In this document: positions 49,600 through 64,000 of the stretch, piece by piece
Numbering within the stretch: the first letter of the stretch is position 1
How the letters are laid out: every line of letters starts with the position of its first letter
Assembly: GCA_027604505.1 (NCBI GenBank)
Contig: JADIIX010000003.1
Span: forward strand, 62,001-126,000
DNA from: Gonapodya sp. JEL0774
Taxonomy: Eukaryota
Direction of reading: 5' to 3'
Length of the DNA stretch: 64,000 bases
Notes under the pieces: generated by a model
Told to the model about the DNA's origin: nothing
Seen by the model: only the letters and a program-made list of their open reading frames with translations
Database searches by the model: none
Translations under genes and position numbers: made by a program

Positions 49600-50030
49600 C
49601 CGCATTTAGTGAAGGGATAAGTGCACCTTGGGTCCCAAACTTCAGTTGCAATCTCGTTGGATATACGGCAAACTCGGTCGCAAACCACTGATAGATTAGA
49701 ATGGTCATATTTTCTCCGCATCGCATAAATTGAATACATAGATAGTCTCAGTGACGCTTTGCTGCCTGTGTGAATCAACGTGAAAGTTCTTGCAAGCACA
49801 TCCTTCGCTCTCGTTCATGCAATTATCACCCGCTACAAATGTGGATGAAAACCGTGTATAAAAGTGGTGGTGGCGTACGATCCCAGACTACTTCAACTCC
49901 AGTCGCCACAACTTCTACTATGTAACAATTGTAACCCCTCCAGGAGGATATCCACGATCTGAACCAGGGTATGAGGAGAAGTCTTCAAAGAGTACCCGCC
50001 TTAGAAGTTGTCACCCTCACCATCCAAAAA

Positions 50031-50197
50031 CACGGCAAAACAGCAGGTCCCTCAAATAGGAGGTGAGACCTTCACTTATCGACAAGTCTTCGGACCTCTG
50101 TCATCTAGAAAATTGGAAACGATACAGAGAAGATTAGCATGGCTCCCTGTGCAAGGATGACACGCAAGTTCTGAGATGGATCTCAAATTTTTTTTTT
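50031..50197. repeat. Repeat A, inverted copy of about 58138-58304
   Basis: Identical by eye to the reverse complement of the U6 locus, including 50 bp upstream. Confidence 0.97.
50081..50192 (+). ncRNA. U6 spliceosomal snRNA copy lacking the downstream B-box (possibly non-expressed)
   Basis: 5' UUCG hairpin (GACAAGTCTTCGGACCTCTGTC), ACAGAGA box, AGATTAGCATGG, CCTGTGCAAGGATGACACGC, T10 terminator. Confidence 0.9.
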
Positions 50198-50470
50198 CTA
50201 TTCCCATAGTCTCTCTTCTCCCCGGGACTCAAGTCACTCTCCTACTCACTCTCCTGGTCACTCTCCCCGGGACTCATGTCGTCTCCTACGCTTAGAGTCA
50301 TCCATCTCAGGACTTGGGAGACTAACGTCACTGGAGTCTGGCTGAAATAGAGACGGACTTCAGTCACAGCGTACTACACAAGTCACTGTTGGGTGTCGAC
50401 AAGTCTGTTCAGTACTCCCGTTTCCCACCGCATGATGAACATATGTACATATCAACATATGATACACCTA
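50198..50470. repeat. Repeat B, inverted copy of 52737-53013
   Basis: 273 bp, differing by 1 substitution and a 4-bp CCGG indel. Confidence 0.97.
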
Positions 50471-50915
50471 TTGACATAACTCCCCGCAAATCAAGCCCGA
50501 GCCACGGTCTTGTCATTCTCGGTAACAGTCGGAGAAGGGGAGCATTGCTCACAACCATTGCTATTGTCAACGGCCTCACCGAGCTCATTTCACATGCGTA
50601 AGCCGTGCCGTGGCCCCGATCATCTCAAGCTGGCCAAAGAAGCACGTAAAATCCGCGAAACTCGAACGCAACACAGGTTGATCGAAGCATGCGAATGCGT
50701 ATAGCCGTACTTTTTACACAGAAAACATTTCAAATTGAGAGGCGGAGTCACGCGGAGCTTCATATCGAACTGTCCTGACCGTACCTGGCGCCACGTTTCT
50801 CATCAACGGAATAACGACCTTTACCCGTCTCTGCAATATATCAGCGCCTTCGATCTTGCATCATTTACCCTCTTGATCACTGAAAAGTATTGACTGCAAT
50901 TACATCACCGACACT

Positions 50916-51983
50916 ATGAAGTTCGAAGAGTTCAATCCTGCCCGCGACATGCCAAGTCTCTCGGGGAAATGCATTCTCATCACTGGAGGTGAACATTGAT
51001 GTTTCGCACTGGAAGGGTGGAGAGTTCTGTTACCTATTTAATATCTGCCTGTCGGAAAAACTTCCCGGCCGTATTACTCACTAGGCACTGCGGGACTCGG
51101 CAAAGACGTCGTTCTCGCGCTCGCCAAGATACAAAATCCTCCATCGAGAGTATACTTTACTGGCCGCGCTGTATCAACTGACAAGGCAGCTGCAGTCGAA
51201 ACAGAGTTCTTGGACGCCCTCCCACTTCAAGCCAAGTCCACCAGCAAGGCGGTCTTTGTGCCTTGCGATCTCGCATCGCTCGCAAATGTGAAACAAGCAG
51301 CTGGATTGCTCGTAACATATCTCCAAGAGAACGACCCCGCTGCCACACCTCCGCGCCTTGATGTTGTCATTTGCAATGCCGGGATCATGGCTGTCCCTCC
51401 ATCGGTCACCAAGGACGGCTTCGAGATTCAGTTCGGGACAAATTACATGGGTCACGCACTGCTCGTCAAGCTTCTCCTTTCAAACCTTGTTGCCGCCAAA
51501 GGTCGCATCGTCTCGGTAACGTCGCAGGGACAGGGGTTCGCTGACATCATTCCAGGCGGTATTGCGTTCTCCAGTCTCTTGTCGGAACAAACTGGATCTG
51601 GCTTTGGGTTCTTGGGGACCTGGAAGAAGTACGGTCAATCGAAGCTAGCCAATGTCCTTTTTGCACGTGAGATTGCCCGACGGTACCCCGACGTCACAGC
51701 CATCTCCATTCACCCTGGCGTAGTTAATACGGGTCTCGTTTCTACGCTTGGTTTCTGGAACAACCTGTTGGTGAAAGTAGGCGCTCGTTTCAATTCCCCC
51801 GAAGATGGCATCAAGAACCATCTGTGGGCCATTGGGTCGGAGAAGTCGGCTGTTAAAAACGGAGGTTACTATGAGCCCGTGGGAGAGCCTGGAAGGAAAA
51901 CGAGATACAATGAGGACAGTGAGCTGGCAGCAAAGTTGTGGGACTGGACGGAGAAGGAGCTGGGGAAGTGGACTACGACGTAA
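50916..51983 (+). CDS. Short-chain dehydrogenase/reductase (retinol dehydrogenase/WWOX-like)
   Basis: ILITG|GTAGLG, CNAGIM, QFGTNYMGH, YGQSKLAN, IHPGVVNT; one intron. Confidence 0.93.
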
Positions 51984-52736
51984 ACATTGCAGCAAGTGAC
52001 TACGTATCATTGCATTTGAGTTATTGTTCTCATTTTATATATAAGTGTCTGAGACCGTTGAATCCACAGACGCAGACACTATAGCCACAACCGACTTGTT
52101 CATTCTCGGGTAACATCTGCCGAACATGAATATCATAAGGCCCCTTGACGACTCTTTCTCCGAAGTTATTCTGTAAGTGAAAGCCACGTTCTATGCGTGC
52201 CGGATGACCTCCAATGTAGGTGCACGAGGTGCACTGTGTTCGGTTCCATGATCCAATATTGTGGAATCGATGGAACCACCTTCACTAAAACTTCCAAGCT
52301 CGCAGAGCAAATGGAAATCATGACGCTGTGGTAGTTACGCAATGGTGTGGTGAATGTATAATGTGTGCATGCCTGATGAGTGGAACTCATCGTTCAAATG
52401 CTGTAAGGTACCCTGTACGTGCAAATGATCACTCCCACTCCACCAAAATTCCAAATGTGCATGTAAATATTTGATTCTGTGAAACAGCTACTCCAGAGCG
52501 GTACTCTTAGTGTCTTTGACAATACTTCCTTTCGCGCAGCCTTCAAAGCTGCTATATCGCCTCGCCCTTTTCTACAGTAACGCTAAATATAATATCTGTG
52601 GGTGTGGCGTGTTTTTGGTATATGGTGATATGATATAGTACGGCAGATTCACAAAAACCGTTCCCAAACCTCTGGATCAACTGCCACGCATGAATCACCA
52701 CCCATCGGCTCAACAATACGTTTATTTCGTAATGTC

Positions 52737-53013
52737 TAGGTGTATCATATGTTGATATGTACATATGTTCATCATGCGGTGGGAGACGGGAGTACTGAAC
52801 AGACTTGTCGACACCCAACAGTGACTTGTGTAGTACGCTGTGACTGAAGTCCGTCTCTATTTCAGCCAGACTCCAGTGACGTTAGTCTCCCAAGTCCTGA
52901 GATGGATGACTCTAAGCGTAGGAGACGACATGAGTCCCGGGGAGAGTGACCAGGAGAGTGAGTAGGAGAGTGACTTGAGTCCCGGCCGGGGAGAAGAGAG
53001 ACTATGGGAATAG
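52737..53013. repeat. Repeat B', inverted partner of 50198-50470
   Basis: Reverse-complement match, read directly. Confidence 0.97.
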
Positions 53014-53760
53014 GAGAAGGCACCCTCAGACCCTGAGGCTCCTGCGGCACACCTGTGGGATGTCGTCAATATGTGGTACGATCACCACAACACCCCACAC
53101 GGACATCCCCGTCAGGCTGATGTTACAATGACACGAGGAGAAAAAAAATTACGAAGCGGTTGATTTGGAGGCATTGTGTGCCAACGTCGACTTGAATCTC
53201 GGCCTGCCTTCTGTTGCTGGCCTCAAGCAGTGGTAGGGGACGGCTTTTCTCGTCGTCGGCGATGGCTGGACAGCAAGCCCGTGGATGGATTATTGATTCC
53301 GGCGGTTGGTCCAATGTTCGGACCACTTGCTCATCTGAAGGGCAATAACCTAAAGGTGGTATACGTATATGTTATACAGGGCATTGCTGTACATCAATTT
53401 AAAAACTTAGGGCACGAAAGAAACCCTGAAGAGTCGGAGCACTCCTTGGGAATGGGGTGGTGCCTGATCAGGCAATCTGGCGGCGGATTCAGTTTGAACC
53501 TTCTTAGGGAACATTCCTGTTTCCCTACTGAAAATCGGCGTCAATACGAATGGAAGAAACACAACAATCTCACCCGAAATTGAGAAAGGAATGCATGACT
53601 CTCGAGCAAGTGAGACCTTCCATCTTGCTTCACGAGGAGGTTTGCGACGACTCCCCTCACTCCAAATCAACGTGATTCGTCACCTGTTTCGTTTCAAAAG
53701 CTCCCTCTCCTCCTCATATCCGATATTCAGAACCATCTGAAGACCGGGCCTCTCTCTCAC

Positions 53761-56700
53761 GTGTTCCGGGACATTACCTTTGCTCCATCTCAAGAAGTCC
53801 ACATTCCAGGCACCTGGGCAAATTTACACACGAACGAGACTCTTGATGCAGAAAACCTCGACACTGCACTTATCCCCCAGGTTTCAGTGAAACTGTCGGA
53901 GGGGCTTGTGGAGTTTCCCTTACCGAATGCCTACTTCTCATCGCTCGAGTATTGGCATGCGAACCGCCTGGACCGCACAGCAGGGTCTGAAGTCCTCCGG
54001 CACTCCAAAAGTACGCAGGGTGGAGCAGCGAACTTCCTCTTTACTTCAAAGCAGTGGATTCGTCTTCACTTGCACTCCCCAACCATTCCTGACCACCATG
54101 CTCCAACTCTGCCAGCATCTCTCTTCTCCACCCTGACCAATAATTCTTCATCTGCTCTTGCCATGGAACCTAGGCGGAAATCGGGTGCTTTTGCGCAGGG
54201 TGTGGCGCGGCGTGTTGCAGGTGACCTACCGGAACAGGATCGGGATGACTACTGGAGGAAACTCTATTTGGCATGGTGGCTCCTGCTGAATTTGAGGCTC
54301 AACGCAACAGATTTGAGTGGTATTGTGGACGTGGCTCCAACAGCGCAAGGCTGGGTCAGTTTTCCAAAGCACAGGAAATCCTTTGTCGACAGTCTCACCA
54401 AGATACTGCGGGACCAAAATTGTGCTCAGCTCGCTCTGTATGTTGGCCAAAGTCTACGAGAACTGAATGACAAGCTAAAACTGTCAAAGCTGGCTACACT
54501 CTGTCAACGGTTCGAAGTTGCCCATGGTATTTTTATAGCCCGAACATTCGGCAGGTGGAGATCAGGGGTACTCGTCAGACTCTCCAAACCACCACATAGG
54601 CAGTTCCAATCTGTCATGTTGCTGGATATTCTTGGAGTGTGGAGTGTTGGCCTCTTGCTGAAACACCACGATGCTGGTGCCGTGGTCGTTGTTGGTGGGG
54701 ATGTTCGAACCCTGGAATCAGAGGCAGCACTCGCAACCATCAGCAATCAACTTGGAGACGCAGTGAATGTGGTCTGCCACACCGTGGTTGATCTTTTTGA
54801 GCCCCCTTTCAATCCGGACGGCAGCGTTCGTGCTCAGACAATTGATTTGCTCAACAACTTGATCCGTCGAAAACTACTTGGCCAAGAGCGGCAACCAATA
54901 AAGGACAGCTTCAGCGCTATTAGCTGCTGGGAGGAATCCGAACCCGATGTTGTCTTCCCGCTGATTGTTATTGTGATGCGTGTGTCAGACTTTTGGCAAG
55001 CCGTCCGAAACGGAGCGCTTCTGGAGCAGCAGTTGGTTGGACTGTTCTTCGGGATCCTCAATGGACAGTGGGATGAACTGGCGCAAGTGGAAGTTGACGA
55101 TGACTTTGTTCTCGGTGACAACGGAGACAACTTTGATGGTGCATTCGACGCATCGGAAGTGGAGTCAGCGGCGCAAGCAAAACCCACCGGGAAAACCAGT
55201 GCTCGCATTTTCTCGCCAAAAGTCAAGATTATCCTGGAATTTGCGTCGTCAAATGTGCATCCCCTGAAAAGTCGCACGTTCTTGTCGTCCTGTCTCAACA
55301 ACATAGCCGATTCGACTGGTGGAATCCTCGCGACCATTCACCCAGATCGGTTGACTCGCAGACCAAATGAAGTACGCGAGGTACTTTCCGCTTTGCGTGC
55401 TAAAGGCCTCACATGGGAACTTCTGCATCGAAACGGAACGAGATGGTCAAAGTAGTTGAGGAGAAGGTGATGAAGCAAGTGGAGCAGGGCCGAGCTCTCG
55501 CCCAGCAACAAGCGTTTTACACCAGGTCACAGATGTTCCAGCGCCGAGTCTTGGCTTCACTCCTTTCTTTCACTTGCACTTCCACCTCACACAGTTCGCT
55601 CTTGGAAGTACAAGCGGGATTCCGTCGTGTGGAGTTTCCGATAAAAGGAATTGCGCGAACAAGCCCTGTGGCGTGGTGAGTTGCTCCTTTGCATAATCTT
55701 GCTTCTTTGTATGGGGGGAAATGGCCTACGGGCGGTGGGACTCATTTGGGTAGATTCGAGATTTCGATCGACTTTTAGCAACACCGGTGATTTCTTCATT
55801 TCTAGGGGAGCACGGGAACCATCTGAGCTATCGATTACCACTCAAACTTCCTTCTTGAAATCCATCGTGGGACAGGAACAACTCCATGTCGTTCCTTTGG
55901 AGGCCGTGACTGCCTCCGAAGCAGACGGTGGCCGTGTGCTTGAATTCATTCAGTCTTGCGAGAGGAATGCTATCGTCGTTGCAGTCTCGTTGGATCGTAT
56001 TAGTCGTTCAACATCGGGCCTCCAAAGTATCCTGGAACTGTGCTCAGCGAAAAGCATCCGGATCATTGTCCTCCTTTGGCACCTCGAGTCGTTTCTCCAG
56101 CTGAGGGGCTCTCTCTCTTCTTGTGCTCCACGTGACATAGCTGGATGGCGAACAGAATTTGCTCGCACGGTGCTTGGACTCCAATTCTCCTGGGATCCAG
56201 ATGTTGCGCTGGCTCACCTCCCTGAACTTGAGTTCTGCGCATCCAGTTCTTACACCATGCCGCTTTGCTTTCCAGGCGACCTTGTACACCTCGGAATAGG
56301 TAACGCAGCGATGAGGATGGAGCTTCAGTTCGGTGAAGATTTTGCCAAAAGTGGAGCACGAAGAGGAAGGGAGGCTGCAAGGTTTGAGCGTCCGGTGGAA
56401 CAAGATATCTTGAGGCTCGAGATGAAAACAGACGTAAGGAACGGTCTCTTGACACCCCGAGCCCAGGATGCCGTTGGCAATGTTGCGCAAAAATTTTTCC
56501 CGGGAGCGTCCATCGAAGTTTTGTCGAGCTCAAACCCCATTGACTGCTTCTGTGTCCATCTCCCTCCTGGAACTCCCCACGCCAGTGACTGCCAGTGCCC
56601 CTGTCGCGGATGTCAGAGACTTCGACCGTGTATTTCACCTGATTGTTGTGCTGACAGAGAGCTCACACCCTGCACATGCTCTTTGCTGTGTTCTTGCACC

Positions 56701-57066
56701 TGTTTGTCGTGTCACAGGGTTTCTGTTGAGGCCGAGTTGCAGTCCGATCCAGACATTTCAACAAGCGACGGTGTGGTCGTGTCAGGAACAGAGGAGAGCA
56801 GGAAGCGGGAAGTGGAGCAAGCTCAGGAAGGGGACTCGGAAGACGCGGATGACGGTTCTGCTGTACCTTGTATTACGCTGTGTGGACGGAATCGGTCGGC
56901 AAAGACAAAGTGGTGCTCCAAAGAATGCTATGTTGATTACAGCAGGAACAACGGGCACGTCGTACGCACCTGTGACTTTTCCGGCTGCACAAACATATGT
57001 CCACCCGGTGCAGGTTTGAAATGCGAGAGTCACGTGTGGCGATGTGCAAAATTGGGGAAGCGTTGA
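53761..57066 (+). pseudogene. Tandem serine-recombinase (resolvase-like) domain protein with Cys-rich C-terminus; one frameshift, one intron, decayed 5' extension
   Basis: Domain 1: VIVMRVS(54985)...LEQQ...IHPDRLTR(55345), then helix-E-like QVEQGRALAQQQAFY in the -1 frame. Domain 2: IKGIARTS(55662)P-VAW|intron 55676-55805|GAREPSELSITTQ...VSLDRISR(55993). CxC-rich tail. Confidence 0.7.
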
Positions 57067-57576
57067 CCCAGGCTGGGTGTACGATTGGAGGGAAGTATGT
57101 TAATGGGTGTTTTGAATAGGCGTTATGATCCGGACGTGTGACTTGTAGTGCGAGTAGAATGAACAGACTTGTTGACACAACGGTACCGTCCAACATCTCG
57201 AGAACCACCAGCTCCCGAGTTACGACAGCTTACGCCGCACCTCTCATAGTTGGTGGTTCTGTTGCGAGGGTAGGCGTATACAGAGCGGGTCCAGTACCCT
57301 AGAGAGTCCCCGGCACGGGTTTGTCCGACCTCATTCTCTCACCTTCCCCGAGGCACGTTGACTCCACAGTATCCACCGACCACGTAGAGCACCTTTTCAT
57401 TGTGTTTGATGTTTTCGATTCGAGTCGGATGTTGGAGCAGCTCGCAGTGGGCGAGAAAGGTGGTGCGAGAGGAAAGAAGGTCAGCAACCGCGAGACCGAG
57501 AGCGAATGTTGATTCGGCCATGAAAGCAGTTGCGGCGCCATCACACACTCTGGGCGAAGCTATAATCACAGTTTCT

Positions 57577-57662
57577 GATTGGACGGAGACGAAAGATTGG
57601 ACGGAGGCGACAGATTGGACGGAGATGAAAAATTGGACGGAGACGGAAGATTGTACGGAGAA
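57577..57662 (+). repeat. 18-bp minisatellite x5 (GATTGGACGGAGACGAAA consensus)
   Basis: Five imperfect in-frame units; VQSxxS repeats on the minus strand. Confidence 0.93.
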
Positions 57663-58083
57663 CTGCGTCCAGTACATGACATTGAACGATCATTGCAGCC
57701 GACGCGCTAACCTTTACCCAGAGCTGATTCGATCAGCTATCCTCCTTTTTTCCATCGTTCACATATCATCATCCCGTTTGAGACCCACGACAGGGGTCGT
57801 CGCCGCTATGGCTGTCCGGTTCTCTCAGTCCAGTGACAGGTAGGTGTCTGATATCCAACCACACCAGAAGGCCACTCCCGTCCATCAAGTATCCAGTCCA
57901 TCTTTTTTATTGATTTTGCCGTGCTCGGGTAGTGAGAACGGGGGTAGGTGATGAGTGAATGCGGATCGTTGCTTGGGCGTTGGACCCACATATGTACAGC
58001 ACAAGTTCTTTTTTCCCCTGCCGACTGGACTGACACGCACAGCAACACTGAATGGAATGCTCATCAGAATCTGTGGAGAGCGA

Positions 58084-58093
58084 GGATCGAACC
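58084..58093 (-). promoter_or_regulatory. Pol III B-box downstream of U6
   Basis: GGTTCGATCC on the minus strand, about 28 nt past the T26 terminator; no tRNA stem around it. Confidence 0.75.
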
Positions 58094-58121
58094 ACCCATC
58101 TTCCTTGCCCCGGGCTAAGAC

Positions 58122-58147
<26 letters not shown>
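58122..58147 (-). terminator. Pol III terminator (T26 on minus strand)
   Basis: 26-A run on the + strand immediately 3' of U6. Confidence 0.85.
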
Positions 58148-58152
<5 letters not shown>

Positions 58153-58254
58153 GATCCATCTCAGAACTTGCGTGTCATCCTTGCACAGGGAGCCATGCTA
58201 ATCTTCTCTGTATCGTTTCCAATTTTCTAGATGACAGAGGTCCGAAGACTTGTC
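58144..58254 (-). ncRNA. U6 spliceosomal snRNA gene
   Basis: Reverse complement: GACAAGTCTTCGGACCTCTGTC...AATTGGAAACGATACAGAGAAGATTAGCATGGCTCCCTGTGCAAGGATGACACGCAA...TTTT. Internal A-box-like TAGAAAATTGG and downstream B-box. Confidence 0.93.
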
Positions 58255-59564
58255 GATAAGTGAAGGTCTCACCTCCTATTTGAGGGACCTGCTGTTTTGC
58301 CGTGCATACCACACAGGCCGCAGTCGTTGCGCCACACTGTCTGCCGCAGCACTTTCTCGTTGCACTCATTCTTCAGTCCAACGATTTGTGACTCTTTCCC
58401 TCCGTCTCAACCGTGATGTTCAACTCATGTGATTCCAGCACGGTGGCGATCGCGAACTTGGCACTCGCCAATCCCCCTCTTTCCCTTGATCCATCCCACA
58501 AGCTGTGCCGTCTTGTTTTCTCATCGTCATGTCGTACCCGCCCCCTCGGATTCTTCCCCTAATGCCCACCTCGCCACTCAACTGCGAAAGACACACCGCC
58601 GGGAATTGATTGGGACCTCGGATGTTGAGACCTCGGTCTTTGATGTGCCAAACTGTTGCTCCATTCAGTGCCCAAACTTGACATTCACTAGAGAGCCTCC
58701 AATCTTTTTGCACAAGGGATCATCATTGCTAATGAAATCTCGTGACGGCAAAGAATTTCACGCTGAATCCTCCGATGGGTGCAAACCACGGCATTCTGAC
58801 CTACCCCCTCCACTCCGTTGAGATTACCCACTTGAACGTTACTCGAAACCCTCACATCTGCAGCGACTAACCGGGCGCTCGCGCTCACTTCGAAATCACG
58901 TGAACCAACTTTTCCCAACTCCACTCGTTTCTCTCCGCCAATTTGACCTGCCGGAGAAGCAACCCTCGAACGCGCGCTCCGTCTATAAATCTCCTGTGAA
59001 ATGACTTGCCCTGAACTGCAGCTATAAGTGCTATTGCATCGCGTCTCGGACACCGCCCCACTGTGCACATTTGGGACATCCTGGAGCACACGTTCGTCTC
59101 CAAAAAGTGTTGCCAACGGCACCGCAAATCAGTAAATGAAGATCCCGAGCGAACGAAACCTCAGATTTATCATTTATGTAGTCCACCCGCCATAACGAAC
59201 ACGAAGAGTTTCGGAATCTCATCACATCAGGCCTCCCTCGAGTTGGAGCCACTCCTCAACAATACACCAAAACGACGTGCGGGACTTTGTTGCGGAAATT
59301 GTTGACGTCACAAGTACATCTTCATGAGCCGGTTCTGTACAGACTAGTATATCATCGGTAGAACGTAGTTACGAGATGCTAACCTTGTGAAATGAGATTC
59401 GACATAGGTTGTGAAACCGTGTCGACGGGAAGAATGCCCAATCAGTGTAATTTACCCAAGTAGGCTCTTGAGGAGGTACCCAACGTAATTCGTGGGAGTG
59501 GGAGTGCGGGTGGTGTTCGGCCTGCACATTCCGACCTTCCCCACCACGAACCAAATCCATCACC

Positions 59565-61461
59565 ATGGGATTCGACTACAGCATCCTCGTCAACATCAAA
59601 GTCGACATTCGTCCCGATGGCATATGCATCCTCACGTTGAACAGGTACCCCCTTGTTCTAGCCCCCCTGTTTCCCGCGGTGGACGTTCGGAATCCCCACA
59701 AAACCAACCCGGCTGCCCCCCCTACCCTATTTTTGTACATAGGCCCGAACGCATGAACTCGTGGAATGATTTCATGGCCATGGAACTTATTGTATGTGTA
59801 GGCTGGAGTGGGGAAAGAGCAAGAGTGGTTTTGGATTCAGGAGCTCTTGTGGTTTGAAACGATGTCCATCCCCATCACCAATTTCGATACCCACCCAACT
59901 CTGCCGCCAATCACGCTTGGCCTCGGACTATGGCCTCCTCACCTGCATTCTCTAACCCCTCACCCAACCCGCACCCCACCTCCTGTCCTCCCCTTTCCCC
60001 TCATATCTCCAGGTCGCCTTCGAAGAACTCGACCGCGACCCATCCGTCAAGGCCATCATCGTCGCCGGAGCCGGCCGCGCATTCTGCGCAGGCGCGGATC
60101 TGTCCCCTGCCGGTGCGAAAATTGCTGCGAGTCGAAGGGTGGACAGGATGAACCAGCACAGGGATTCGGGGGGGCAGGTCACGGCCAGGATCGCGAAATG
60201 TAGGAAACTCGTCGTGGCGGCAATTCATGGGCCGGCTGTGGGCGTCGGTATCACTATGGTGGGTCGTACTCTCGGTCGGACTTTTGACGGATTCGCAACT
60301 CACAGATTTGTGTCGCTGGTGTTCACAGACTCTCCCCATGGACATTCGAATCGTGTACAAGGGCGCAAAGATTGGGTGCGGCTCGGTGGTGTAGCTCTCG
60401 CCTTTCATACGCAGGGGATTCATTCACCAACAAACCCCCACTCAAACTCCAACCTACCCGTTTTCCTTCAGCTTTGTCTTTGTGCGGAGAGGAATATTAC
60501 CAGAAGCCGCGTCGTCCTGGTTCCTCCCACAACTCATCGGAAAGTCGCAAACGCAAGCCCTGTTCATGCCTGGACGGGTCCTCACGTGAGCGAGAGAGTC
60601 GCCTACACTCGTCGGGTCATTGCTCTGTCGAGGCTCAAATAGCACGACCGTGTTCCTCACTCACCCACTTTTGGAAAAGTGCCGACCATCATCTCTTTAA
60701 CGGGCTCTTCTTCGACCTCATCGATTCGCCGGACAAGGTTCTCCCTGCGGCTATCGAATTGGTTAAGGAAATCGTTCAGAACGCGAGTTTGGTGTCGATC
60801 GCGATTACAAAGGTGCGTTGGAGATACAACCTTGAATCTTGAAACCGGCATCTCGAAACTGTGGTTCACGTGGCTCGTCAGGCAATGGTCTGGCACGACC
60901 AGGGTTCACCAGAGGGACAGCATTTGCTCGACTCCAAGGTTAGTGCGGGTTGTATCCTAATATTCGTCGCTTGCTATTTGGGCTTACATATGTGTTTCTG
61001 AAAAGGGCATCCTCTACACTGGTAACGGAGCGGATTCTCGCGAAGGAACATCGTCGTTCCTGGAAAAGAGGTGTGCTGGAACGTCGTGATTTCTCTTCGT
61101 AAACATCCACGATGACTCTCTATAACATTGAATTACTAGAATTCCCGAGTTTCCTGGTCGGATCGACGGGCCCAGTGGAACATACGGTGAGTCGCTCGTA
61201 CCCGTTCTTTGGATTCGCTCATTCACCTCAACCACTGATACATTCAGGCCTTCCAAGCTACTATCCGTGGTGGAACTCTCAAGACATTAGCAGTCCCGAT
61301 TGGGTGAGCTGAGTCGCAGCGCTCCTCGCACTGGGGATTCACTCTGGCTGGTAGACCTTTGCTGACCACGGTTGTCTACTACGCAGCCCACCGACCGTGC
61401 TTCGCAGCTCGCGCTGCTCGCACAATTCCGCAAAATTGAGGCGGAGAACAGCAAATTGTAG
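59565..61461 (+). CDS. Enoyl-CoA hydratase/isomerase (crotonase), predicted peroxisomal (SKL)
   Basis: ILTLN|RPERMNSW, GAGRAFCAGADL, VAAIHGPAVGVGITM, FVRRGILPEAASSWFLP. Final exon ends AENSKL*. Confidence 0.9.
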
Positions 61462-62687: not shown

Positions 62688-63317
62688 GGTAGCCAGTTTT
62701 GAAACGTCTTCCGGGAGTGATTGACTGCGAGGCCTCTTTTCCGCCTTCTCCGTGTCTAGATCGCGAGAACGATCAACCACGCCAATGTCCAAGGAACCTT
62801 CTTCGGAGGTTCGCTTCCGCTTCAGGCGGTTGGCAGCTTTCCGGATCACCGGCTGAATGCGCTGAGGCAGCGAAGAATCCGTTTTTGTATCGTCCAGGCT
62901 CGCGATTAAGCGCGAAGACCGGACGTGATAGGACGAGGTGAGAGCAACGAGGGGTTGGATGCCCAGAGAACGGCCAGGAAGTGAACCCAAGGACCGCTGA
63001 AAAGGGAATCGATCGAATGTTTTCTTGGCGGACGCGGCAAAGTGTCTGGACGGACGTCTGTTACCGCGAATGTCCGGCGAGTAAACGGCACAATGGAACA
63101 GTCTGGAGCCTTGGAATCCTGAATGTGTGGGCGGGGCCTCGTGATTCGGAGCTCACTGGCGCTGCTTGATTCTGAATCACCCTCTCAAGTTCGTCGCTAC
63201 GGTGCGATTCACTGGTGACCGTCGTTGAACGTTTGGAATGACAAACCCTCTCCCCTCACAGGTTTGGGCTTTGGTCACCATATCAACAACCCACTGTATT
63301 TGTATGTTATTCTCCAT

Positions 63318-64000
63318 TTAAATTTTCGAGGCGGAAGCCTTCAACTCAGCTCCTCTTCGTCTATATTCCTCAATGTTAGAAGGCCAGAGAGGATCGGAGC
63401 TGACATCGGTGTGCTGCCACCAGGGGTAGTTAGATGGTAGGCCGTACTTTCCATTTGCTGGATCGTTCTTTACATTGAGACGGCCTGCAAATGCAGGAGG
63501 TCTCTTCTCTAAGAACGAAACGGCTCCTGTGCGTTGAAGAATAAAGTCAGTTGCATGCTCGTGCAGGCCACCAGAAGGTGAAGGTACGACGGACCTTCCA
63601 ATCGATCAGTGCCAGTGCTGGTGTGGTGAAGCATCTGGGAGTCAAGCAGATGCTGGCCTTCTGGAGTTTCGGCACCGTGCCAGACCAGTGCTTTGGTTAT
63701 CGCTGTTGACACAACAGAACATTCCACTGCGATTTCTTTCGCCAGTGCAAGTGCTGCAGGCAACACCTGTTCCGCCTTGTCGACAATCTCGGTAAAGAGG
63801 CCTTGAAACAGATGGTTTGATGCGGGAAGCACACGCCCAGTCATCATGAGAGCAAGGGAGCGTGACTTGCCGATGAGTTGTGGGAGGAAGTATGACGACG
63901 CCGCCTGCAAGTTTGCGTGAAAAGAATGGAAAGTTTGTGTTGCGCAACGCTGTCACACGTTGCTATGGTACGAATGGCGGCACTGAAGGCGAACTAACCT
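63318..64000 (-). CDS. Second enoyl-CoA hydratase/isomerase paralog, 3' part, ending SKI
   Basis: AASSYFLPQLIGKSRSLAL, ITKALVWHGAETPEGQHLLDS, GLPSNYPWW...ASASKI*. Runs off the right edge. Confidence 0.88.

Follow-up and report, generated by a model that had tools for sequence, protein, structure and literature searches.

What occupies the 5.7 kb between two CGTG tetramers in the genome of an early-branching fungus, and did it arrive there as a mobile element? The locus lies in Gonapodya sp. JEL0774 (assembly GCA_027604505.1, contig JADIIX010000003.1, positions 62,001-126,000, forward strand); the whole stretch that was analyzed, hereafter the window, is 64,000 nt long, and all coordinates given below are positions within it. 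The proposed element, a decayed piece of fungal DNA, extends from 52608 to 58304 (~5.7 kb). An earlier note on this DNA had suggested excision and integration through a circle, driven by a serine recombinase (SR) or an IS607-type enzyme acting at a very short core. That reading is partly supported: the SR gene, the right end at CGTG shared with a second copy, and the symmetry of the predicted empty site speak for it, whereas the IS607 type and a plain circle junction are not supported. The reading preferred here, to which we assign a probability of roughly one half, is that 52608-58304 is a decayed fungal mobile element that carries a gene with two SR catalytic domains and a full-length U6 gene, and that moved via the GT in CGTG and a circle. 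A new family of SR-driven fungal mobile elements, with a putative circle and a putative core, is likely.

The Recombinase Gene and its Relatives

The expectation that an SR gene would be found within the element was borne out. A broken gene at 53595-57066 (plus strand) codes for an N-terminal region without assigned family, two tandem SR catalytic domains (domain 1 at about 54960-55430 and domain 2 at about 55640-56080, both on the plus strand) and a Cys-rich tail; it has a frameshift near 55430-55450 and a likely intron at 55676-55805. The two-domain protein exceeds 900 residues, about 390 of which precede domain 1. The SR catalytic motifs, i.e., the R-x-S nucleophile and D-R-x-x-R, are present in both domains: domain 1 is invariant in 4/4 sequences at R407, S409, Q424, E493, S496-497, R505, and D529-R530-x-T-R533, and domain 2 has RTS and D/E-R-x-x-R in all three full sequences. 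The Pfam Resolvase family (PF00239) matches domain 2 of the window (E 5.6e-6) and domain 1 of the relative P0003 (E 5.5e-6). With a low-confidence model of P0003 domain 2, all of the top five rows of a VIA-align fold comparison were SRs (Z 9.7-7.9), the best match being a serine integrase (Z 9.7, rmsd 3.5, 122 aligned), and the Atlas model, also of low confidence, aligns both domains with Resolvase clusters. The fold model of domain 1 of the window is too poor to be informative (mean pLDDT 35.7); in its comparison SRs appear at rank 30 and rank 33 only (Z 5.1). Foldseek gave no match for P0003 at E<=0.001 and no SR among the matches listed, Atlas gave no usable match for the relative P0002, PDB sequence searches returned no SR, and BLASTP of domain 1 against domain 2 gave no mutual alignment. 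Judged by its sequence, the gene product is a two-domain member of the serine recombinase superfamily.

The same architecture occurs in three relatives, found in Dissophora, in another assembly, and at a decayed metagenome locus, and the two-domain family occurs in two or more fungal lineages distant from each other. These relatives are few and scattered; P0002, on a 6.1-kb contig, and P0003, on a 10.2-kb contig, look intact, and one relative has decayed and contains nested repeats as well as a second copy facing the other way. A 5.8-kb relative locus, L001, has by eye a stop codon at the position of the domain-2 serine, and U6 was not found in it. Word-seeded protein searches returned no match, or just the gene model of the window, or just P0003. 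Locus scans confirmed 0/89 and 0/22 candidates in viral contigs, 0/18 in prokaryote genomes, and 0/261 and 1/64 in metagenomes.

Ends of the Proposed Element and the Predicted Empty Site

The CGTG at both boundaries was confirmed, at 52608-52611 (plus strand) and 58301-58304. The left tetramer is read directly from the sequence; its role in crossover is putative, as is that of its central GT (52609-52610, plus strand) as the crossover dinucleotide. On the plus strand, the left core is followed by segment X (52612-52736), the proposed left end, and by the non-coding upstream segment Y (52737-53013). The right-end arm together with the right core spans 58289-58304 (plus strand), the core lying 47-50 nt upstream of the U6 +1. 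No clear terminal inverted repeats were found inside the cores of 52608-58304, no target duplication past the 4-nt core at the element, and no host reading frame was seen to span the insertion point.

Outside the cores, the left flank arm (52596-52607, plus strand) and the right flank arm (58305-58316, plus strand), the putative target half-sites B and B′, are inverted repeats of one another, and the predicted empty site is symmetric around the central GT. The ungapped 12-nt arms match at 7/12 positions, the outer five perfectly. Among CGTG pairs in the window, 563/37,950 reach 7/12, and 20/37,950 do so with the outer five perfect, a criterion picked post hoc with the site already seen. The empty-site score was reached by 99, 10, 41, 289, and 1912 random pairs per 20,000 for arms of 10, 12, 13, 15, and 20 nt, respectively, and by 612/20,000 under free local alignment. 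The quasi-palindromic empty site is hence an inverted repeat above chance whose strength varies with arm length: the symmetry is modest at other lengths, and the score was defined post hoc. Such dyad symmetry fits an SR crossover site, described as an inverted repeat of half-sites around a central dinucleotide (PMC4058570). The right-end arm of the element also matches the left flank arm at 7/12 (1.5% by chance). The predicted circle junction is asymmetric, with a 1/12 arm match; the ends of IS607 are likewise described as unrelated to one another (PMC6188088).

The U6 Gene and the Repeat Family

A U6 snRNA gene lies within the element on the minus strand (58143-58254; RF00026, 81.4 bits vs. 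a gathering score of 44) and has a run of 26 T after it (an A-run at 58122-58147). An identical U6 (50081-50192, plus strand; RF00026, 81.4 bits) is found in a second, internally deleted copy. Both span model positions 1-105 without interruption; the 5′ stem is imperfect, and the internal stem-loop region contains one extra base. They are the only two U6 that Rfam finds in the 64 kb. A B-box-like motif (58083-58093, minus strand), absent from the deleted copy, lies 162 nt after the U6 +1 with one mismatch; with 5.1 such matches expected per window, it is suggestive by its position alone. Exact U6 patterns had no match in prokaryote or viral contigs, and no tRNA was found. A U2-like RNA in segment Y (16/17 match to the U6 3′ end) was rejected: Rfam gave no U2 match at E<=10, and the 16/17 match is within shuffled background over 10 kb. 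A U6atac-like match at 57458-57489 is at chance level (E 8.7).

A family of repeats with a unit of ~120 bp comprises R1 (52737-52820, plus strand, within segment Y), R2 (57066-57181, plus strand, directly after the stop codon of the recombinase gene), and R3 (outer part at 50471-50508). R2 is a diverged direct repeat of R1/R3 (R2 vs. 50388-50508, E 4.1e-4), and no structured RNA was found near the repeats in 5/5 folds (z -0.44 to 1.31). The two-domain protein, the U6 in both copies, and this repeat family are additional to what the earlier note had found.

The Deleted Copy and the Site at 50017-50044

The deleted copy lies at about 50031-50480 (minus strand) and joins segment Y to the U6 end, its internal join (50197/50198) falling at an A-rich microhomology. 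The reverse complement of 50031-50197 equals 58138-58304 at 167/167 positions, and segment Y and the deleted copy are identical at 272/273 aligned bases plus one 4-nt gap; the two copies differ by one substitution, the 4-nt gap, and the length of the T-run. They are inverted relative to each other, about 2-2.3 kb apart, and are the only two seen in the 64-kb window. The deleted copy stops at CGTG exactly as the long copy does, which provides independent support for the right end. As for the question raised earlier of whether other copies end at the same CGTG, the answer is affirmative for the right end only: on the left, identity starts at 52737, and the alternative boundary that had been named near this position is indeed where the two copies part. 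The second-copy confirmation therefore does not extend to the left end at 52608, and the deleted copy is devoid of 52629-52728.

The element-start motif (52608-52628) has one further match in the 64 kb, which lies on the minus strand (50017-50034) and includes a 3-nt gap; two matches were seen in 0/100 shuffles. The joined-ends match reported at 50017-50044 (28 nt, 3-nt gap) is real, given the 167/167 identity and the recurrence of this motif. Beyond the core, segment X′ of the deleted copy (49905-50030, minus strand) has a junction-like head and a diverged tail: the first 17 nt of segment X are common to 50017-50030, and its remainder is weakly like 49905-50016. The likeness of the whole 125-nt segment X to X′ arises by chance in 2/9,354 cases, that of the tail alone being marginal, and 49915-50016 is weakly like 52629-52728 (243/11,370 over 70 nt; 1813/11,374 over 50 nt). 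The caveat that 49960-50034 may be a diverged relative of the left-end flank thus holds. On the other side, the outer part of R3 (50471-50508, minus strand) resembles 57066-57102 (3/9,414 vs. R2) and shows no resemblance to segment X (2,484/9,414). Because the junction flank matches the left end over only 18 nt, is ~55-60% alike past that (vs. 99-100% in the shared parts), and belongs to a copy without 52629-52728, 50017-50044 probably does not represent a plain circle junction formed by the long copy. The diverged left-end flank, together with another flank like the DNA after the recombinase gene, makes a joined or target-like site of an older relative the most likely interpretation, recent sequence having been copied or integrated into this site.

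Proposed Mechanism and Rival Explanations

In the preferred reading, the two-domain protein would be the mover. One chain would act as a ready-made cutting pair, two chains would supply four active sites, strands would exchange at the GT inside CGTG, and the element would leave as a circle and then enter a symmetric target. A second copy that is 99-100% identical, recent, and ends at CGTG argues for this reading; against it stand the distance of ~2 kb between the copies, as local rearrangement can mimic transposition, a second copy without the proposed left end and with an outer flank like 57066-57102, the asymmetric circle junction (1/12), a symmetry that is modest at other arm lengths, the poor fold model of the window's domain 1, the Foldseek search with no SR among the matches listed, and the L001 locus, in which U6 was not found. 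A bolder version, which we put forward very tentatively, is that this is a eukaryotic DNA transposon of a new class, in which a single-chain two-domain SR would home upstream of U6, the element carrying its own U6 so that insertion is harmless, and the unlike domains suiting asymmetric sites.

Phage integrases treat tRNA genes in a comparable way, their insertion leaving a working gene. An integrase homing to U6 would be a possible though rather unlikely explanation, in which the motif at -64 to -47 would belong to the host DNA upstream of U6 and serve as the natural target, and the element would bring its own U6 and arm to keep the gene working; 50017-50197 would then be a hybrid of host arm and element arm, and the long copy would sit in a secondary site. 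The core 47-50 nt before the U6 +1 agrees with this, as do X and X′, which are alike in a short block at the core and diverged otherwise, as paralogous promoters would be; moreover, the human U6 PSE is described ~50 bp upstream, with a PSE-like sequence in yeast (PMC5855946), and transposons are known to target U6 (PMC8869645). However, no displaced host U6 is seen beyond the deleted copy, Rfam giving two U6 in 64 kb, no U6 was found in L001, and the yeast-type downstream B-box candidate of the long copy means that the upstream element may be dispensable (PMC5855946).

It is also conceivable, and in our view improbable, that the host's own U6 and B box merely lie beside a decayed recombinase gene, that CGTG is not an enzyme site, and that the short copy arose through microhomologies, by gene conversion or template switching between older paralogous segments lying close by in inverted orientation. 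In line with this, the short copy is flanked on both sides by sequence similar to diverged parts of the long region, it is joined internally at an A-rich microhomology, and the copies are inverted, 2.3 kb apart; yet the end of identity, the flank symmetry, and the motif of 18 nt would have to coincide by chance at one 4-mer, and the recombinase gene between both cores would be left unexplained. The 12-nt arms, as inverted repeats at the outer edges, could instead be the imperfect terminal inverted repeats of an element spanning 52596-58316, with a truncated short copy and, by eye, a similar short motif again at 58332-58349; this is very unlikely, as the second copy stops at CGTG without the arm and no duplicated target is seen by eye beside the arms. 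That the inverted short copy is an assembly or amplification chimera is very unlikely: near-identical inverted segments do lie close together, but one substitution, the T-run length, and a 4-nt gap set the copies apart, both flanks show separate diverged similarity, and the two-domain family is real either way.

Comparison with Known Systems

IS607-family elements, including eukaryotic Fanzor2 and six SR genes of Saccharomyces kluyveri, are described as free of terminal inverted repeats and target duplication and as exchanging strands at a short core via a proposed circle (PMC6188088; PMC4058570; PMC3627910; PMC2715888). The element studied here shares with them an SR catalytic domain, an apparent absence of both features, and a putative exchange at a short core. 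On the other hand, TnpA of IS607 combines an N-terminal HTH with a single C-terminal catalytic domain, and it comes with an adjacent TnpB and a GG core, whereas the element has two internal catalytic domains, an intron, a Cys-rich tail, a putative GT core, and a U6 gene. No HTH family was matched at E<=1 (Pfam) and no IS607 model at E<=0.5 (NCBIfam), and no TnpB/Fanzor2 family was found in the five larger ORFs of the element that were scanned. TnpB is dispensable in IS607. GACTTGT, counted with the IS607 trait of short direct repeats near the ends in mind, occurs nine times on the plus strand of the window, five of them inside the element, 50-1160 nt from the cores. The IS607 type was not borne out, given two catalytic domains, no N-terminal HTH, and no TnpB match.

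Large serine recombinases (phage integrases; TnpX of Tn4451) are also large, with a Cys-rich C-terminal part and a symmetric target, and they integrate and excise a circle, as would the element by analogy. Unlike theirs, its catalytic domain is doubled and not N-terminal, and its gene is eukaryotic with an intron; the Recombinase (PF07508) and zinc-ribbon (PF13408) domains that come after the N-terminal catalytic domain in large serine recombinases had no Pfam match in P0002, P0003, or the ORFs of the window, although very distant forms could escape. Cryptons and Starships are fungal recombinase elements described with short flanking direct repeats that reflect target microhomology (PMC13465315). 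They use a tyrosine recombinase, whereas the element is of serine type; no tyrosine recombinase was found, the recombinase matches being all of Resolvase type. Dada transposons use a DDE enzyme. Dada-U6 elements insert within U6 and duplicate 6-7 bp (PMC8869645); the element is similarly tied to U6 snRNA genes, but its U6 is whole and internal, and the break lies upstream. As far as sequence can tell, the element is neither IS607, nor a standard large SR, nor Dada.

Implications

Eukaryotic serine recombinases in the accounts cited here are all IS607-like. If the preferred reading is true, eukaryotes would have a previously undescribed kind of jumping gene, and their mobile DNA would gain, beside the DDE, tyrosine, and HUH enzymes, a further class of recombinase, namely an intron-bearing family whose members have two catalytic domains in one chain. 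The intact-looking P0002 and P0003 leave the enzyme open to testing; a cutting pair that occurs naturally in one chain would be relevant to the assembly of SR synapses and could be suited to engineering genomes at asymmetric targets. For fungi, a mobile U6 gene would be a route to U6 copy-number variation.

A two-domain recombinase gene and its relatives

The element between the two CGTG cores (52608-58304) lies in intron-containing fungal DNA, in which an ABC-transporter-like gene (labelled by eye) ends near 49600 and a short-chain dehydrogenase gene (Pfam) occupies 51210-51983. Two of its reading frames, 53761-55455 (E 0.076) and 55651-57066 (E 9.8e-5), both match the Resolvase family weakly. 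At E ≤ 0.001, a HMMER search with the first ORF against 1.84 billion representatives found three proteins. One is the window's own model; the other two, P0002 (928 aa) and P0003 (922 aa, from Dissophora globulifera), score weakly (E about 9e-4). The public record P0001, labelled Gonapodya sp. JEL0774, is nearly letter-for-letter the same as the element's frames, and its gene model wrongly fuses the recombinase gene with a downstream enoyl-CoA hydratase gene. Two hydratase-like genes (59950-61460, the fused one, and 63300-63910) face each other. In the window, the recombinase gene shifts frame near 55449 and contains a likely intron (55676-55805), and is thus broken.

Alignment reveals a common architecture: about 390 N-terminal residues of unknown kind sharing a W..R.DR motif, a first serine recombinase (SR) domain, a helix, a second SR domain, a further region and a Cys-rich tail. 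In domain 1, R407, S409, Q424, E493, R505 and D529-R530-x-T-R533 are kept in all four sequences. The low-confidence P0003 model (mean pLDDT 35.9) contains two alternating strand-helix domains, and the five best matches to its domain 2 fold among 48,161 chains are SRs (for the top match, Z 9.7, rmsd 3.5, 122 aligned); both domains of the Atlas model align to Resolvase clusters, below the Atlas naming bar. For domain 1 of the window protein itself, a poor model (mean pLDDT 35.7) placed SRs at ranks 30 and 33. One of 64 candidates from a metagenome scan, the 5.8-kb locus L001, is matched by P0002 (E 2e-30 and 4e-13) and contains stops, a 95-bp perfect inverted repeat (1307-1401/2102-2196) and, on the opposite strand at 5603-5758, the Cys-rich tail of a second family member (E 1e-11).

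Several further features were observed. The N-terminal motif region of L001 is duplicated (1885-1983 and 2298-2615), and this locus, like the window, has an inverted local duplication beside its two-domain SR gene. In the window, frames broken up by stops precede the recombinase start (52930-53590) and may be 5′ exons or the decayed remains of another gene, an extra Cys/His-rich stretch without Pfam match (56870-57060), absent from P0002 and P0003, ends the protein, and a tandem 18-bp repeat of about five units (57577-57666) lies between the recombinase gene and U6.

Proposed element ends and the CGTG core

The two-domain family is much firmer than the element ends, for which all inference comes from two copies within this window. 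CGTG is indeed present at both boundaries claimed in the earlier note (52608-52611 and 58301-58304). Self-comparison related the reverse complements of 50198-50480 and 50031-50197 to 52729-53013 and 58138-58304, respectively, which reveals an inverted short copy (50031-50480, minus strand); its two parts meet at an A-rich microhomology, which makes it an internal deletion derivative. The first part agrees with 52737-53013 (segment Y) at 272/273 aligned bases and shows a single gap of 4 nt, and the second is identical throughout (167/167). Identity ceases exactly at CGTG, so that the right end of the second copy coincides with that of the first. Past this core, the start of the long copy recurs with a 3-nt gap; the 64 kb thus contain this motif two times, a number that none of 100 shuffles gave.

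The flanks of the long copy form imperfect inverted repeats. The score of the 12-nt arms is reached by 10 of 20,000 random pairs, and those of arms of 10, 13, 15 and 20 nt by 99, 41, 289 and 1912 of 20,000, respectively. Without gaps, the flanks match about the central GT at 7 of 12 positions, the outer five perfectly; 563 of 37,950 CGTG pairs reach 7/12, and 20 also have the outer five perfect. The observation is thus real, and the symmetry of the predicted empty site exceeds chance by a modest margin that varies with arm length. Among five half-sites, three are mutually alike (7/12, 7/12 and 4/12), and the other two make up a separate class (8/12); speculatively, two such classes would fit a recombinase whose halves differ. 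In the right flank, a short direct repeat (58309-58323/58332-58349) contains the half-site motif and is a possible accessory site.

The earlier note also placed the joined-ends junction of a circle at 50017-50044. The match itself is real. Compared with the proposed left end (X, 52612-52736), the sequence past the short copy's core (X′, 49905-50030) is only weakly alike beyond its first 18 nt (49905-50016; 243/11,370 background segments for 70 nt, 1813/11,374 for 50 nt) and more clearly so with the head included (2/9,354). The shared parts of the two copies are 99-100% alike, unlike this diverged tail, which bears out the caveat of a diverged relative. X is missing from the short copy's other side, where the flank (50471-50508) is similar to 57066-57102, directly after the recombinase stop (3/9,414), and the whole match of this ~120-bp repeat has an E of 4.1e-4. 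The short copy thus runs from an old flank through recent Y and the recent U6 end to CGTG, and then into an old flank resembling X. The most economical explanation would be an older relative spanning joined ends (circle-derived or a tandem copy), or a joined-ends-like target, with recent sequence later overwriting or invading it; 50017-50044 would then not be the long copy's fresh circle junction. CGTG stays a real join point either way. A true junction copy having lost 3 nt is possible, because Y has small gaps too. Separately, 50500-50528 and 52083-52116, flanking the dehydrogenase gene, share a gapped direct similarity (1/12,690 background segments) and may represent a further decayed repeat.

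The U6 gene

Both copies carry an identical, full-length U6 (81.4 bits), with the core 47-50 nt upstream of its +1. The long copy also has a B-box-like motif 162 nt downstream of +1, as in the yeast U6 layout (PMC5855946); since such motifs are common by chance, it can do no more than hint at a captured genomic U6 gene. U6 was not found in L001, and may thus be cargo of the window's lineage only. The U6 start (58244-58254) shares an 8-11 nt motif with members of the ~120-bp repeat family, R1-R3 (52799-52809, 57163-57173), and its 5′ stem is imperfect; the U6 5′ end may have become joined to element sequence. An inverted match of 16/17 nt links Y (52891-52907, plus strand) to the U6 3′ end (58154-58170, minus strand); Rfam found no U2 there, and the score lies within the shuffled background over 10 kb.

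Mechanism and relation to known systems

Strand exchange by SRs takes place at a dinucleotide in the centre of a site built from two half-sites, with four subunits acting jointly (PMC4058570); IS607 leaves no duplication and has been proposed to travel as a circle (PMC6188088). Here, one two-domain chain would provide the cutting pair, and two chains would bring the two CGTG sites together in a synapse; strand exchange at GT would release a 5.7-kb circle carrying the gene and U6 and restore the symmetric site. We give an SR-driven element with a CGTG core a probability of about one half. A version of this element that homes to U6 is unlikely, local rearrangement is just as doubtful, and all other explanations jointly are improbable.

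The element would work like IS607 or large-SR elements, and fill the same role as Cryptons, which use tyrosine recombinases (PMC13465315). On the features tested, it falls outside IS607, large SRs, Dada and Cryptons alike. The earlier interpretation is partly supported: an SR gene lies inside, a second copy stops at the same CGTG and the predicted empty site is symmetric, whereas the element is not of the IS607 type and 50017-50044 is probably not a fresh circle junction. The eukaryotic SRs described in PMC2715888 and PMC3627910 are IS607-like, and the main text of a survey of fungal cut-and-paste transposons contains none of the words resolvase, serine and recombinase (PMC5751038). Literature titles and abstract openings showed no fungal SR family with two catalytic domains, although an earlier description may exist elsewhere, for instance in Repbase, supplements or subscription papers. 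The window likely holds a decayed, U6-carrying representative of a new family of SR mobile elements in fungi.
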